DNA of 13,461 bases from Candidatus Undinarchaeota archaeon (GTDB lineage Archaea > SpSt-1190 > JASMDC01), in assembly GCA_964519305.1 (NCBI GenBank), contig CAZFHY010000013.1, forward strand, positions 116,253-129,713, written 5' to 3'. The notes below the pieces were generated by a model. That model saw only the letters and a program-made list of their open reading frames with translations. It ran no database searches and was not told the origin of the DNA. Made by a program: the position numbers and the translations under genes. Numbering within the stretch: position 1 is the stretch's first letter; each line of letters opens with the position of its first letter. Shown piece after piece: positions 1 through 3,090 of this stretch.

Positions 1-98
1 AGGGCATTCTTCAGAACAAGGCGAAGATGCAGAGCACCATCAACCAGATCGAGGAGCTCACACCCGGAACCATGGAGCTCATGTTCGACTGGATGTAA
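1..98 (+). CDS. 3' end (partial) of array paralog 0, conserved C-terminal domain family
   Basis: Frame starting at nt 3 reads [31 protein letters not shown] (TAA at 96-98). 96/98 nt are identical to 765-862, and the same post-stop sequence GCACGCTCA follows. Confidence 0.9.
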   Translation, partial: GILQNKAKMQSTINQIEELTPGTMELMFDWM

Positions 99-202
99 GC
101 ACGCTCATCCATCATAACAGATAGACAGAGGACCCAACCCCCGGCAACGGCTCCGGAGGCACGGGCCCCTAGGGGCCATTTATAAAGAGAGCTAGCTTTT
201 CA

Positions 203-250
203 AGGAAACATTTAAATACAAGTTACTACTATATAGTAGTAAACTGGTGA
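203..250 (+). promoter_or_regulatory. Archaeal promoter (BRE + TATA), palindromic operator-like site and RBS for paralog A
   Basis: Purine-rich AGGAAACA (203-210), TTTAAATA (211-218), perfect 20-bp palindrome TTACTACTATATAGTAGTAA (223-242), and GGTGA (246-250) ahead of ATG 254/257. Confidence 0.8.
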
Positions 251-253
251 TGA

Positions 254-862
254 ATGATGATCGAAGGTATTGACAAGGACGGCGGCGAGTGCAGGGCCCT
301 GGTGCCCTACACCGGCGGCAAGGAGATAACACCTTACGCCGAGGCCGGTCTTCCTGTTTCATATTCACTCAACGGAAAGGAGCTCTCTCCCTACGCCAAG
401 GGTGGCGAGCTGGTCCTTTCCGAGGACGGGAGGGGCGCTAAGGGTTCCTACTCCGTCCCCTCGGGCTCATACAGCGACAACGCTGCCGAGCTCAGCTACC
501 TCCTGGCCGGCGAGAACCCTCATGAGCAGAATCCGCAGGAGACCGCTGAACGGAATGCGAAGCTCGGTAAGTACTGGGAGGGTGCCAAGGAGTTCGGAAA
601 GGGTGCCCTCGACCTCGGCGGTCGCGCCGTCAAGGGCGTCGGGAACGCCATCGAGAGCGGAATCGGCTACGCGGGCGCCACCTACAAGAAGGATTCCGCA
701 TCACGCGCTCAAGATCTCTACCAGACATCTAAGACACTCGGCGAGGCCCGAGATGTCTACTACCAGGGCATTCTTCAGAACAAGGCGAAGATGCAGAGCA
801 CCATCAACCAGATCGAGGACCTCACACCTGGAACCATGGAGCTCATGTTCGACTGGATGTAA
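254..862 (+). CDS. Hypothetical protein, array paralog A (low-complexity PY-motif N-terminus + conserved 110-aa C-terminal domain)
   Basis: 202-aa ORF with its own promoter and RBS. The C-terminal 110 aa are 105/110 identical to paralog B with mostly synonymous nt changes. The start may be ATG 257. Confidence 0.88.
   Translation: MMIEGIDKDGGECRALVPYTGGKEITPYAEAGLPVSYSLNGKELSPYAKGGELVLSEDGRGAKGSYSVPSGSYSDNAAELSYLLAGENPHEQNPQETAERNAKLGKYWEGAKEFGKGALDLGGRAVKGVGNAIESGIGYAGATYKKDSASRAQDLYQTSKTLGEARDVYYQGILQNKAKMQSTINQIEDLTPGTMELMFDWM
530..862 (+). repeat. 333-bp direct repeat (constant C-terminal module), copy A
   Basis: Ungapped match to 1381-1713 with 18 differences in 333 nt (manual count). 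The last 98 nt also match 1-98. Confidence 0.95.
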
Positions 863-967
863 GCACGCTCAACACTCAAAGTTAGATGGACCGCTGATCC
901 GACCACCGGCAATGGCTCCGATGGCACCGGCCCCCTGGCCCGCTTTATAAATAGGAGAGCTTTCTCT

Positions 968-1013
968 AAGAAAGGTTTATATACCAGTAACTACTATATA
1001 GTAGTAACTGGTG
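968..1013 (+). promoter_or_regulatory. Archaeal promoter (BRE + TATA), palindromic operator-like site and RBS for paralog B
   Basis: AAGAAAGG (968-975), TTTATATA (976-983), 30-bp palindrome ACCAGTAACTACTATATAGTAGTAACTGGT (983-1012, one mismatched pair), and GGTG (1010-1013) before ATG 1021. It aligns without gaps to the paralog A promoter at an offset of 765. Confidence 0.8.
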
Positions 1014-1020
1014 TTGAATC

Positions 1021-1713
1021 ATGGCCTATGAGTTCACGAACATCACCGATGCCTATCAGGCCCTGGGAGTCAAGTCCGGGGCTAGCGAGAAGGAGGTGAA
1101 GGACGCCTACCGCTCCCTGGCCATGCAGCATCATCCTGACAGTGGCGGCGACGCCAACATTTTCGACGTGATCACCAAGGCCCGCGATTACATCAATGAC
1201 AATGGCTACGGAGCCGGCCCTGATGTGGAAAAGCTCATCGAGGGCGAAAAAGGCGGCGCTGTCGTCCCCTACCAGGCCCCCGCGCCATCCTACGGTGCAC
1301 GCGATCCTCATATCGCCGAGCTAGAGCAGGGGCTCGCCGAGCAGCGGTACGATGCTGCCGGTACCAATCCTTACGCGGATAATCCTCAGGAGACCGCTGA
1401 GCGGAATGCGAAGCTCGGCAAGTACTGGGAGGGTGCCAAGGAGTTCGGAAAGGGTGCCCTCGACCTCGGCGGTCGCGCCGTCAAGGGCGTCGGGAACGCC
1501 GTCGAGAGCGGAATCGGCTACGTGGGCGCCACCTACAAGAAGGACTCCGCATCACGCGCTCAAGATCTCTACCAGACATCCAAGACACTCGGCGAGGCCC
1601 GAGACGTCTACTACCAGGGCATCCTTCAGAACAAGGCGAAGATGCAGAGCACCATCAACCAGATCGAGGAGCTCACACCAGGGACAATGGACCTGATGTT
1701 CGACTGGTTATAG
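1021..1713 (+). CDS. J-domain-containing protein, array paralog B (N-terminal J-domain + linker + conserved 110-aa C-terminal domain)
   Basis: DAYQALGV...[24 protein letters not shown]...[11 protein letters not shown] is a J-domain with an intact HPD (1132-1140). There is no G/F-rich, Zn-finger or DnaJ_C region, so this is not canonical DnaJ. Confidence 0.9.
1381..1713 (+). repeat. 333-bp direct repeat (constant C-terminal module), copy B
   Basis: About 95% identical to 530-862. Identity begins abruptly at the NPQETAER codons and ends at the stop codon. Confidence 0.95.
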
Positions 1714-1720
1714 GTTACGG

Positions 1721-2014
1721 TCAGAACCACTGTTTCAGGCCTGTCTGCCCCTTCTTCGGCGGCTCATCATCAGCAGGCGTCGGTTCAAGTGTCTTCAGAG
1801 TCTCAGGTTCGCCCAGCGGAAGGGTCTCTTGGACCTGGTTCGCCGACTCCACCCGCAGACCTTTCACGAAGTCAAAGAAGGTCTTGCGCTTCCCGTCCCG
1901 GTATGACACGAAATTGGCACATATCCCAACGCTCCTCGAGAGGGGCACTGGGGCGGAGGCAAGGAAGGTACAGGCGTCGTTGCGGGCGTGGAGACACTCA
2001 GGACAGGTGGGCAT
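1721..2014 (-). CDS. Small Cys-rich (putative Zn-binding) protein with C-terminal PIP-box
   Basis: 97 aa. N-terminal CPEC-x7-C-x16-C pattern, Pro/Glu-rich linker, and C-terminal KKGQTGLKQWF. The ATG lies 5 nt after the upstream gene's stop, with GGAGG upstream. Confidence 0.75.
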   Translation of the reverse strand: MPTCPECLHARNDACTFLASAPVPLSRSVGICANFVSYRDGKRKTFFDFVKGLRVESANQVQETLPLGEPETLKTLEPTPADDEPPKKGQTGLKQWF

Positions 2015-2019
2015 CCGGC

Positions 2020-3090
2020 TCAGGACCTCCTCACAAAGGAGTGGTCGCCGAGCACGAACTCAACGGTGTGAGACTCCTGGTTCCCCACTCCAACGGAGGC
2101 CGCTCGCCCGAGGATGGAGTTCACGAGCTTGATCGGGTAGTCGATACCGCACTCGCCCATCACGATGCTCTCCTCGATCGAGGTGTTCCGTATAGTGACG
2201 TTGTCACCGATTGAGACGTATGGTCCGATGATGCAGTCGGGACCGATGGTACAGCCCTCGCCGATGATCACGGGTCCACGGACGATTACGTCCTTACCTA
2301 TGGTCGAGCCTTTCCCTATGGCCACCGCACCGCGGACGACCGCTTCCTCGCTCACAGTACCACGGATGTCGGTTGTGAGCTCGTTGAGGATGAACCGGTT
2401 ACCCTCCAGAAGGTCCTCGGGCTGACCCGTGTCCTTCCAGCTGCCCTTTAGCTTGACAGCGTTGACTGGCCTCTTTCGCTCAAGGAAGGTCTCGATCGTG
2501 TCCGTCAGCTCGTACTCGCCCCTCGCTGAGGGTTTGAGCTTGCCTATGATGTCCCACACCTCGGGGCCTGAGAAGAAGTAAATACCCGCGATGGCAAGGT
2601 TGGTCTTGGGCTTCTTGGGCTTCTCGACCACGCGGATGATGGAACCATCGTCCACCTCGGCGACACCGAACTTCTCGGGATCGTGGACCGGGAACAGGGC
2701 GACCGAGCATGGCGCACCACTGGCATCGTGCTGACCGACCATGTCCTTGATGGGCATGTTGAAGATTATATCGCCTAAGAGCACGATGAAAGAGTCGTCA
2801 CCCACCCAGTCCTTGGCGATGCTCACCGCGTGAGCGAGCCCCTTACGTTCCAACTGGTCGCGGTAGATTATCTTTACACCGAATCCCGATCCATCCCCCA
2901 GGAAATCCATCAGGGGCCCCTTCATGTACCCGACGATAAGGCACATCTCGGTAATACCCGCATCCCGGAGCTTCTCGACGGTGTACTGGATTACCGGCTT
3001 GTTAGCGAGCGGGAGCAGTTGTTTAGGGCCCGTATGGGTGATGGGCCTCATGCGCGTGCCGAACCCGGCGGCGAGGATGACTGCCTTCAT
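2020..3090 (-). CDS. rmlA: Glucose-1-phosphate thymidylyltransferase, long form (NTP_transferase + hexapeptide beta-helix)
   Basis: MKAVILAAGFGTRMRPITHTGPKQLLPLANKP, GLAHAV, LGD, FGV, VEKP, LKPSARGEYELTD and WKDTG motifs, followed by C-terminal hexapeptide repeats. Start is ATG 3090 or GTG 3093. Confidence 0.92.
   Translation of the reverse strand: MKAVILAAGFGTRMRPITHTGPKQLLPLANKPVIQYTVEKLRDAGITEMCLIVGYMKGPLMDFLGDGSGFGVKIIYRDQLERKGLAHAVSIAKDWVGDDSFIVLLGDIIFNMPIKDMVGQHDASGAPCSVALFPVHDPEKFGVAEVDDGSIIRVVEKPKKPKTNLAIAGIYFFSGPEVWDIIGKLKPSARGEYELTDTIETFLERKRPVNAVKLKGSWKDTGQPEDLLEGNRFILNELTTDIRGTVSEEAVVRGAVAIGKGSTIGKDVIVRGPVIIGEGCTIGPDCIIGPYVSIGDNVTIRNTSIEESIVMGECGIDYPIKLVNSILGRAASVGVGNQESHTVEFVLGDHSFVRRS

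Follow-up and report, generated by a model that had tools for sequence, protein, structure and literature searches.

Class C (type III) J-proteins include the membrane-anchored DjlA, auxilin, which functions in clathrin uncoating, and the chloroplast protein CDJ2, which acts on VIPP1. Constant and variable parts are combined in polymorphic toxin loci of the Rhs, LXG, and CDI type, and encapsulin cargo proteins carry loading peptides, which are short, constant C-terminal elements. Amphipathic helices composed of 11-residue repeats occur in LEA group 3 proteins, apolipoproteins, alpha-synuclein, and perilipins. At the level of transcription, archaeal repressors such as TrmB-family, Phr, and Lrp-type regulators have operators placed downstream of the TATA box and ahead of the start site.

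The locus described here shares some features with each of these systems. It is a tandem cluster of four genes in the order gene0-A'-A-B on contig C13 of an uncultured marine archaeon, analysed in a stretch of 13,461 nt (the window) and its surroundings. The explanation that we favour, with a probability of roughly one half for the whole of it, is that of a paralog cluster whose members share a docking or assembly domain, in which B brings in Hsp70 and which is controlled through one operator.

Layout and integrity of the gene cluster

The first-pass annotation had recognized at least three head-to-tail paralogs with variable N-termini and stops at positions 98, 862, and 1713. The stops were borne out by the sequence and the number of genes rose to four; however, the third unit visible in the window turned out to be A', a duplicate of A. 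The coding features are as follows (window positions unless a contig is given):

C13:115587, + strand: start of A', left of the window and before a 100-N gap; A' is a second copy of A
1..98, + strand: tail of A' (last 32 codons plus stop, the stop at 96-98), 96 of 98 nt the same as in the tail of A
254..862, + strand: gene A, 202 aa (201 aa from the second ATG), stop at 860-862; N-terminal repeats containing xPY
530..862, + strand: constant domain of A, 110 aa; Gly-rich repeats, then a terminal helix pair of high conservation (alignment; predicted helices)
1021..1713, + strand: gene B, 230 aa, stop at 1711-1713; J-domain, then an A-like linker, then the constant domain
1048..1200, + strand: J-domain of B, residues 10-60 (PF00226, E 2.6e-11, 43.9 bits against a cut-off of 27.8)
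1381..1713, + strand: constant domain of B, 110 aa, assigned by identity to the domain of A

The window starts directly after a 100-N scaffold gap (C13:116153-116252), the flanks of which share an overlap of exactly 55 nt. The assembly is scaffolded and has 16 such gaps in total. Before the gap the coding sequence of A' is identical to that of A, and across the 55-nt overlap A' forms a 609-nt frame that is 2 nt and 1 aa off A. Due to this near-identity across the flank overlap, we regard A' as a duplicate of A and not as a third N-terminus. The array had been expected to continue to the left of the window. It does so with A' and gene0, which encodes 329 aa and has a C-domain of about 50% identity, but it ends there, at a divergent TatD-like gene that adjoins gene0. 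A profile search across the 39,559 ORFs of the genome yielded no further paralogs. The spacers between the units (155 and 158 nt) contain no ORF, in line with the earlier statement that immunity genes are lacking between them.

That the array might be an assembly artefact had been raised from the start. Strain variants or a collapsed or mis-scaffolded repeat could mean that the genome has fewer units than the scaffold displays. The 100-N gap inside the array with its 55-nt flank overlap is typical of a graph branch, the scaffolded assembly contains 16 gaps, short-read contigs break at every repeat, and the sister-species contig L023 carries only one A. Against this stand Logan contigs from four runs of two studies, in which each promoter region is joined to the end of the upstream gene. 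Junctions in the four runs lead from the end of gene0 to the A' promoter, from an A-type gene end to the A promoter with its A-type 5' leader, and, again from the end of an A-type gene, to the B promoter with the B N-terminus. Thus, three different spacers each follow the end of a family gene, two of the three lead into an A-type 5' leader, and we concluded that the array was not invented by assembly. In addition, A and B with their different N-termini are contiguous in independent sister-species assemblies (L022, L023). Logan contigs break at repeats, and the array parts that have no contig cover in some runs correspond to such breaks and do not count as evidence. The contig holding the shared N-terminal part of A had depths of 20.2, 18, 14.3, and 76.5 in the four runs, with flanks at 8.5–11.1, 12.9–15.8, 8.4–8.8, and 42.2–43.9, respectively; since depth is not copy number, this is only a weak hint of two copies. 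An artefact is, therefore, very improbable.

Gene B as a J-domain protein and the shared C-terminal domain

A J-domain had been noticed in B and was missing from A. The Pfam search agreed with this assignment: PF00226 matched B well above its cut-off and gave no match in A or gene0. A profile search of the genome returned PF00226 at the same site of B (46.3 bits), and in the translation the HPD tripeptide occupies residues 38-40. Full-length DnaJ models (NCBIfam) aligned to residues 6-62 of B only, with 20–36 bits against cut-offs of 150–620. PF00226 is the sole Pfam content of B, which is devoid of the G/F region, the zinc-finger, and the DnaJ C-terminal domains. The genome encodes a DnaK (PF00012, 715 bits, C20:6010-7725), adjoined by a DnaJ. 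Judged by this domain content, B is a class-C-like J-protein. As in other members of that class, an N-terminal J-domain with HPD is followed by a C-terminus unrelated to DnaJ that would set the site of Hsp70 action, and a DnaK is present. In contrast to them, the targeting part of B matches no known family and, unusually, is shared with adjacent paralogs that have no J-domain, so that B and its presumed clients or partners would be paralogous. The portion of the literature consulted on archaeal J-domain tandem paralogs described no such locus.

Recomputing the identity between the constant parts of A and B gave the values reported before, 315 of 333 nt and 105 of 110 aa; the differences comprise 11 synonymous and 5 non-synonymous codons. 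While the shared 110-aa block was confirmed, the homology between A and B goes further than had been described, by about 50 residues (161 aligned positions, 75% identity). In an alignment of eight sequences, including a relative of 30% identity, all 13 invariant columns fall within the last 51 residues. This end of the domain forms a strongly conserved predicted helix pair closing with a conserved Trp. The preceding part consists of Gly-rich repeats of about 11 residues in variable number and is the least conserved part of the domain. This distribution, with the invariant residues in the last 51 and the least conservation in the repeats, suggests a specific interface.

The constant domain, which had not been recognized from the sequence alone, matched no known family or structure in our searches either. 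A PDB profile search yielded 0 matches at E≤10, and the ESM Atlas gave no usable match for the C-domain and only an unnamed cluster for gene0 (score 0.75). The N-terminal part of A likewise matched no known family in Pfam, PHROGs, and NCBIfam. AlphaFold2 predicted helices of A at residues 94-142, 148-190, and 194-201 with low confidence. Mean pLDDT was 42.2 for A (8-row alignment) and 41.9 for gene0 (4 rows); both models are of low confidence, too low for fold matches to be meaningful.

The proteins encoded by gene0, A, and B are hydrophilic and rich in Gly, Ala, Lys, and Glu (pI 4.9–5.2, GRAVY −0.59 to −0.74, Gly 11–14%), and no hydrophobic segment occurs in their sequences. They would thus, together with A', be soluble, acidic, and mostly helical proteins of the cytoplasm. 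In the explanation that we favour, the shared C-terminal domain would be a protein-binding or self-assembly module through which gene0, A, and B converge on the same partner or join one mixed assembly. B would then recruit the DnaK of the genome to this assembly, which would be remodelled or dismantled as a result. A common docking role of the constant domain is plausible; the domain could also have an activity of its own instead. If the function is as proposed, the locus would represent a simple natural case of how an Hsp70 adaptor originates, namely when a copy of the client or partner gains a J-domain. In a more specific version, gene0 and A would form a lineage-specific, hitherto undescribed polymer or coat that is assembled through the 110-aa domain. 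B would be its built-in Hsp70 adaptor, a paralog of the subunits that it services with the J-domain fused onto a client copy, and one palindromic operator would control the genes along with a small regulon, all in a lineage without recognizable PspA and ESCRT-III. We regard this version as distinctly doubtful.

The repeats point to another possible role, in stress protection or membrane coating, as in hydrophilins, LEA proteins, or apolipoproteins. Amphipathic helices of 11-residue periodicity would coat membranes or shield proteins with no need for a specific partner, and the J-domain copy would provide the link to Hsp70. Gene0, which carries 6–7 repeats of 11 residues, shows a clear periodicity (z 5.9 at lags 11 and 22; lags 7 and 18 also raised), and all three proteins share the hydrophilic, Gly/Ala/Lys/Glu-rich composition of the known 11-residue-repeat proteins as well as being acidic with 11–14% Gly. 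A mannosylglycerate-hydrolase-like enzyme in the regulon described below connects the proteins weakly to compatible solutes. No PspA/Vipp1 or Snf7 homolog was detected when the genome was searched with PF04012 and PF03357, which leaves a membrane-stress role unfilled by known families. The array proteins themselves have no PspA_IM30 or Snf7 match in Pfam (A and B at E≤1, gene0 at E≤0.1). However, the periodicity of A and B is weak (z at lag 11 of −0.3 to 1.2) and their repeats are degenerate, no LEA or apolipoprotein family of Pfam matches gene0, A, or B, and the repeats are the length-variable and least conserved part of the domain while the conserved core with the invariant residues lies outside them. 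We consider this account unlikely.

Distribution, evolution, and genomic neighbourhood

Searches with the family resulted in 7 matches at E≤0.001 among 1.84 billion (1.84e9) representatives, one of them unrelated, and in 7 matches among 5.8e9 clusters. The unrelated one, P0006 (3706 aa), aligned over about 70 residues at 28% identity and was rejected as a compositional match; it is a surface protein that contains Calx-beta, cadherin, and Por-tail domains. Significant matches were present in 2 of 61 related genomes, both of the same genus, and one more was borderline (E 0.009). In all databases searched only three architectures occur, the A type, the B type with its J-domain, and the gene0 type; the only additions are two short, probably truncated metagenome proteins. 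On contig L023 of the sister species, gene0, A, and B are contiguous and in the same order. The omega values between orthologs were 0.19 for A, 0.17 for B, and 0.07 for gene0, and those of the N-terminal parts ranged from 0.15 to 0.21. Both the family genes and their N-terminal parts are under purifying selection.

The C-domains of A and B are 94.8% identical at the nucleotide level in the source genome, compared to 88.5–90.3% between orthologs and 86.7% between A and B of the sister species. Correspondingly, dS of the C-domains was 0.177 between the A and B paralogs here, 0.34–0.38 between orthologs, and 0.489 between A and B of the sister. Gene conversion has homogenized the C-domains of A and B in the source genome. 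The cluster is the product of tandem duplication; the split of A and B predates that of the two known species and the split of A' and A is very recent.

The first-pass annotation had interpreted the array as modular, with the constant C-terminus as a shared tag and the N-termini as interchangeable cargo that recombination could swap. Taken as a delivery system, this would make the C-terminus a tag for loading or secretion. Like polymorphic toxin loci, the array consists of tandem related genes with a constant and a variable part, the latter flanked on both sides by homologous DNA, and like encapsulin cargo it displays a constant C-terminal element on otherwise different proteins. Recombination does act on the array, as gene conversion of the C-domains, and the promoter palindrome coincides with a rearrangement breakpoint in the sister genome. 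The notion of interchangeable cargo found no support: the variable parts are few, fixed, and conserved, with the same three types in both species, one of the units visible in the window merely duplicates A, and a J-domain, being a co-chaperone module, is not typical cargo. Unlike polymorphic toxin loci, the array has the reverse orientation and no immunity ORFs or toxin or trafficking domains. Beyond the J-domain, no toxin, trafficking, defence, or phage families were detected with Pfam, PHROGs, NCBIfam, and PADLOC. Unlike an encapsulin loading peptide, the constant element comprises 110 aa and is no short peptide, and no gene for a family-1 encapsulin shell (PF04454) was found in the genome, which is 99.8% complete. 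Secretion or injection genes, for which the neighbourhoods of homologs had been named as the place to look, were found neither in about 10 kb to the left nor in 11 kb to the right of the array; instead, it is surrounded by genes for hydrogenase maturation, TatD-like proteins, and sugar-nucleotide/glycosyl transfer. A delivery system is thus highly improbable, and the locus is a small, fixed, lineage-restricted gene family and not a cargo-swapping system. In itself, it is a small family of orphan genes that establishes no new delivery or diversity-generating class.

An equally improbable origin is that from an integrated virus, plasmid, or other mobile element. The proteins are orphans of very narrow distribution, and B, through its J-domain, has matches in several phage protein groups. 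However, these PHROG matches cover the J-domain only, no relative of the family occurs in the viral contigs searched, and no integrase or tRNA is among the ORFs listed around the array. The array is flanked by housekeeping genes which are syntenic in both species.

The promoter cassette and its 16-nt palindrome

As had been noted, the regions upstream of A and B are homologous: 114 positions of the two spacers (155 and 158 nt) are identical, and a repeat search identified the same repeat families in both. They contain the following elements:

99..253, + strand: spacer and predicted promoter of A
164-177: GC-rich 14-nt palindrome in the A spacer
179-186: T-rich TATA-like octamer in the A spacer, after the 14-nt palindrome
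211..218, + strand: TATA box of A, TTTAAATA, 6 nt upstream of the 16-nt palindrome
225..240, no strand: perfect 16-nt palindrome ACTACTATATAGTAGT, putative operator, 13 nt before the ATG of A
246-250: GGTGA, Shine-Dalgarno-like word upstream of A
863..1020, + strand: spacer and predicted promoter of B (alignment with the A spacer; repeat search)
944-951: TATA-like octamer in the B spacer
976..983, + strand: TATA box of B, TTTATATA, 6 nt upstream of the palindrome
990..1005, no strand: the same 16-nt palindrome, 15 nt before the ATG of B

At B, the palindrome extends to about 28 nt (984-1011) with one mismatch. All array genes display the same arrangement of TATA box, 6 nt, 16-nt palindrome, 13–15 nt, and ATG, which agrees with the earlier proposal that each gene has a promoter of its own, here predicted from these elements. 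The 3.6-Mb genome contains 7 perfect copies of the palindrome and 16 copies at ≤2 mismatches, whereas the arithmetic expectation for a perfect 16-mer is about 0.001 copies. A TATA box precedes the palindrome at 13 promoter-like sites, and in all 13 an ORF of ≥60 aa starts 3–27 nt downstream. Beyond the array, the cassette fronts about nine other, scattered genes, and the palindrome itself marks about a dozen further promoters. The sister genome has 9 palindrome sites (0 in the reversed control) and has kept the palindrome of the array promoters; the three class relatives searched have none.

In our preferred explanation the palindrome would be the operator of one transcription factor. Since it lies over the expected start site, this factor would most likely be a repressor, and a repressor on a shared operator would switch the four array genes together and along with the regulon. 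Similar to archaeal repressor operators, the element is a palindrome of two 6-nt half-sites, located 6 nt downstream of a TATA box at many promoters, and by analogy a factor bound there would block the recruitment of polymerase. In contrast to them, the candidate sequence was not found in print (no match in the published literature searched). A weakly matching winged-helix protein encoded beside a degenerate palindrome site at C1:558877 is a first candidate for the regulator. The central TATATA of the palindrome could also be a promoter element itself and not part of an operator. The sequencing runs listed as holding the locus include no RNA runs. The A spacer and the other spacer fold as RNA on par with shuffled sequences (z −0.75 and +0.99, respectively), the palindrome region forms a small hairpin (z −2.1), and Rfam gave 0 matches at E≤1 in window positions 1-2100. 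Because the palindrome is located upstream of the expected transcription start, we take it for a DNA operator rather than an RNA element.

The remaining genes that follow the palindrome encode an amidohydrolase, an MGH1-like glycosidase, an M14 peptidase, a metallophosphoesterase, a HAD hydrolase, and several orphans, a functional mixture without clear theme. In an all-against-all BLAST of the regulon proteins, only gene0, A, and B were related to each other. The combination of TATA box and perfect 16-nt palindrome delimits a compact candidate regulon in this uncultured archaeon, whose genome is unusually large for its class. The 14-nt palindrome and the adjoining octamer in the A spacer (164-177 and 179-186) may, from their sequence, be a terminator or a second TATA box.

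The four-gene array and its left end

The left end of the window belongs to a real array of four self-promoted paralogous genes with a common promoter cassette, and this is the more secure part of the analysis. On contig C13 of the source genome (G000) the array and its surroundings are arranged as follows:

left of gene0: a divergent TatD-like gene, an orphan gene, then molybdenum-cofactor and hydrogenase-maturation genes
C13:114482-115471: gene0, the leftmost paralog (329 aa), its last ~100 residues ~50% identical to the constant domain
C13:116153-116252: 100-N scaffold gap immediately preceding the window (C13:116253-129713)
window 1-98: tail of A', a near-identical second copy of A
window 225-240 and 990-1005: palindrome sites
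window 254-862: A, with the C-terminal 110-aa constant domain at 530-862
window 1021-1713: B, with the constant domain at 1381-1713
window 1721-2014, minus strand: 97-aa ORF with a Cys-rich N-terminus and no family match, directly 3' of B and conserved at the equivalent position in the sister species (the other member of the genus)

A first-pass annotation had read three reading-frame ends, near-identical C-terminal parts, homologous spacers and a J-domain from the sequence, and all of these were recovered. The stops lie at 98, 862 and 1713; the constant parts of A and B agree at 315 of 333 nt and 105 of 110 residues, with synonymous differences in 11 codons and non-synonymous ones in 5; the spacers (155 and 158 nt) are identical at 114 positions, and a repeat search returned the same repeat families. 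The J-domain of B matches PF00226 over residues 10-60 (43.9 bits, cut-off 27.8) with HPD at residues 38-40, and no family match was obtained for A in Pfam, PHROGs or NCBIfam. Long alternative-frame ORFs also overlie A and B (window 994-1311, minus strand; 402-950, plus strand), one of them open in the sister species as well. The family and J-domain signal is in the reading frames of A and B, and these ORFs were therefore read as by-products of GC-rich coding.

The frame ending at 98 had been taken for a third paralog. It is the tail of a family gene, but not of a different kind of protein. The assembly has 16 such gaps. Left of this one, the coding sequence is identical to A as far as the gap, and its final 55 nt recur as the first 55 nt beyond the gap. 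Read through this overlap, the gene has a 609-nt frame as A does; the two differ at 2 nt and in one residue (E189D), and window 1-98 is thus the end of A', a very recent second A copy. The proposed continuation of the array to the left holds for A' and gene0, but not beyond, where the array ends. A profile search with the constant domain among the 39,559 ORFs of the genome gave no further copy.

As a check on the reality of the array, Logan contigs of four runs from two studies were mapped to it. Contigs of all four runs joined gene0, its stop codon and the next spacer to the A' start codon. An A-type gene end (from 21 nt before the stop) was followed by the A spacer, the palindrome and an A-type leader in 4/4 runs, and 590-nt contigs with an equal start (21 nt ahead of an A-type stop) crossed the B spacer and reached the J-domain, likewise in 4/4. 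Since two distinct spacers precede an A-type leader, two A copies are required. The N-terminal contig shared by A and A' had a depth of 20.2/18/14.3/76.5 in the four runs compared to 8.5-15.8, 8.4-8.8 and 42-44 for unique neighbours; this increase, seen in every run, is only a hint of two copies, as depth is not copy number. An assembly artefact would concern solely the A'/A copy number: the gap falls within A' and no Logan contig of the four runs covers the entire array, but given the two spacers we consider it very unlikely. In run X7, one contig departs from A at L007:5993 (C13:115993) and continues in a variant resembling the sister-species A gene, and so a close relative seems to co-occur in that sample.

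The promoter cassette

Each of the four genes is preceded by a TATA box, 6 nt, a perfect or near-perfect 16-nt palindrome (ACTACTATATAGTAGT), 13-15 nt and the ATG; the stretch between palindrome and ATG contains a GGTG(A) word. The 3.6-Mb genome contains 7 perfect copies, with an expectation of ~0.001 for a perfect 16-mer, and 16 with up to 2 mismatches. At 13 sites a TATA box lies just 5', and at 13/13 of these an ORF of at least 60 aa starts within 3-27 nt; four of the 13 are the array genes. Products of the other genes behind the palindrome include an amidohydrolase, an MGH1-like glycosidase, an M14 peptidase, a HAD hydrolase and several orphans, and the palindrome also precedes a metallophosphoesterase gene adjoining dnaK-dnaJ. 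Palindrome sites on other contigs of G000 are:

C1:403997, C1:523934, C1:558877
C4:79847
C7:128171, C7:130546
C8:23000, C8:23977
C9:123990
C14:48740
C20:10307
C21:46306
C32:8543

Allowing one mismatch, 9 sites occur in the sister genome (reversed control, 0), three class relatives have none, and the palindrome was not found in the literature searched. We propose that promoters with this cassette of TATA box and palindrome, about 13 in all, form a candidate regulon; the cassette is conserved in the sister genome. Presumably, following archaeal promoter layout, transcription starts near the 3' edge of the palindrome, and binding of a factor at this point would prevent recruitment of polymerase. 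None of the listed sequencing runs that contain the locus is an RNA run. A possible regulator, judged by sequence, is a 255-aa protein (C1:558962-559729, plus strand) with a weak, below-cut-off winged-helix match (HTH_24, E 0.0027). Its gene starts 69 nt from a 2-mismatch palindrome and is divergent from a glutamine amidotransferase gene.

Evolution and distribution of the family

On a 5-kb metagenome contig from the sister species (L023), TatD (minus strand), gene0, A, B, the 97-aa ORF (minus strand) and the nucleotidyltransferase gene are contiguous, and A-B is present on a second (L022), indicating that gene order and the three architectures were kept between species. Orthologs of all three are under purifying selection (omega of 0.19 for A, 0.17 for B and 0.07 for gene0; 0.15 and 0.21 for the N-terminal parts alone). 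The C-domains of A and B are 94.8% identical in nucleotides within G000 (dS 0.177), while either is 88.5-90.3% identical to its own ortholog (dS 0.34-0.38) and the two share 86.7% within the sister species (dS 0.489). This pattern demonstrates tandem duplication and gene conversion in the array: the A/B duplication predates the species split, and the G000 C-domains were homogenised later.

The first-pass annotation had explained the near-identical C-termini as a constant tag for interchangeable N-terminal cargo. The conservation of three architectures and their order argues against this, and we regard the model as highly improbable. The array also lacks the toxin or trafficking domains, immunity genes and diverse variable parts that polymorphic toxin arrays need, and it does not fit encapsulin cargo, as no PF04454 shell was found in the genome.

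The constant domain, unrecognised in the first reading, is outside every described family: neither Pfam, PHROGs and NCBIfam nor a PDB profile search, ESM Atlas and PADLOC returned a match. Among 1.84 billion cluster representatives it had 7 matches at E≤0.001, including a 3706-aa surface protein regarded as a compositional match. A search of 5.8 billion clusters yielded 7 proteins, of A type (201/202 aa), B type (230 aa, every one with PF00226) and gene0 type (329 aa) and one of 143 aa; a profile from all 8 aligned family proteins added no members. In a panel of 61 genomes, made up of this one and others of the genus, the class and further archaea, the domain occurred only in G000 and the other genus member, besides one borderline match (E 0.009). 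Gene0 and its most distant relative, P0007 (308 aa), can be aligned almost end to end (26% identity, E 2e-9), and the gene0 architecture is therefore probably the oldest. An origin of the tandem array from a mobile element is highly improbable given the syntenic flanks in both species, and the viral contigs searched contained no relative of the family.

On sister contig L009 (8442-8478), an A-type spacer with palindrome comes after gene A, and beyond it stand the HAD-hydrolase gene and the genes next to it; in G000 these lie on another contig (C21:46339-45564) than the A region (C13:116253-116495). The synteny break falls precisely at the promoter palindrome. It reflects either a genuine rearrangement at the operator or a chimeric contig; in other sister-species assemblies B comes after A. 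The genomes of G000 (3.63 Mb) and its congener (~3.8 Mb) are three to six times the size of 15 sampled genomes of the class (0.6-1.2 Mb), and the two represent either a branch with unusually large genomes within a small-genome class or a misplaced lineage. Passages of one paper (PMC10936187) describe reduced genomes of about 1.5 Mb in DPANN archaea and contain nothing on this gene family.

Protein anatomy and putative function

Function is much less secure than the evolutionary and promoter description. Homology between A and B begins at A52/B71 (161 aligned positions, 75% identity). In effect, B is a J-domain ahead of an A-like protein; the A N-terminus carries additional xPY-containing repeats. 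All 13 invariant columns of the 8-member alignment lie within the last 51 residues, from A152 to W201. The Gly-rich part preceding them varies in length, with about four extra repeat units in gene0. AlphaFold2 predicted long helices for the domain (94-142, 148-190 and 194-201 of A), at a mean pLDDT of only 42 (41.9 for gene0).

We suggest, at a probability of roughly 0.5, a docking or assembly mechanism in which the conserved terminal helices would form a specific interface through which gene0, A and B join a common partner or a single assembly, to which B would recruit DnaK. The Gly-rich repeat part may contribute avidity or surface binding. Auxilin with clathrin and CDJ2 with VIPP1 are analogous. 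Direct shielding of membranes or proteins by 11-residue repeats is an unlikely alternative. Periodicity of 11 residues is strong in gene0 (z 5.9 at lags 11 and 22, with 7 and 18 also raised) and slight in A. All three proteins have an acidic pI (4.9-5.2), a hydrophilic composition (GRAVY -0.59 to -0.74) and no hydrophobic stretch, and they differ from ESCRT-III/PspA in giving no profile match. With regard to DnaK recruitment by B, its J-domain is functional-looking and the genome encodes DnaK and DnaJ; B has the profile match and HPD of a class C J-protein, lacks class A/B domains and has an Hsp70 in the same genome.
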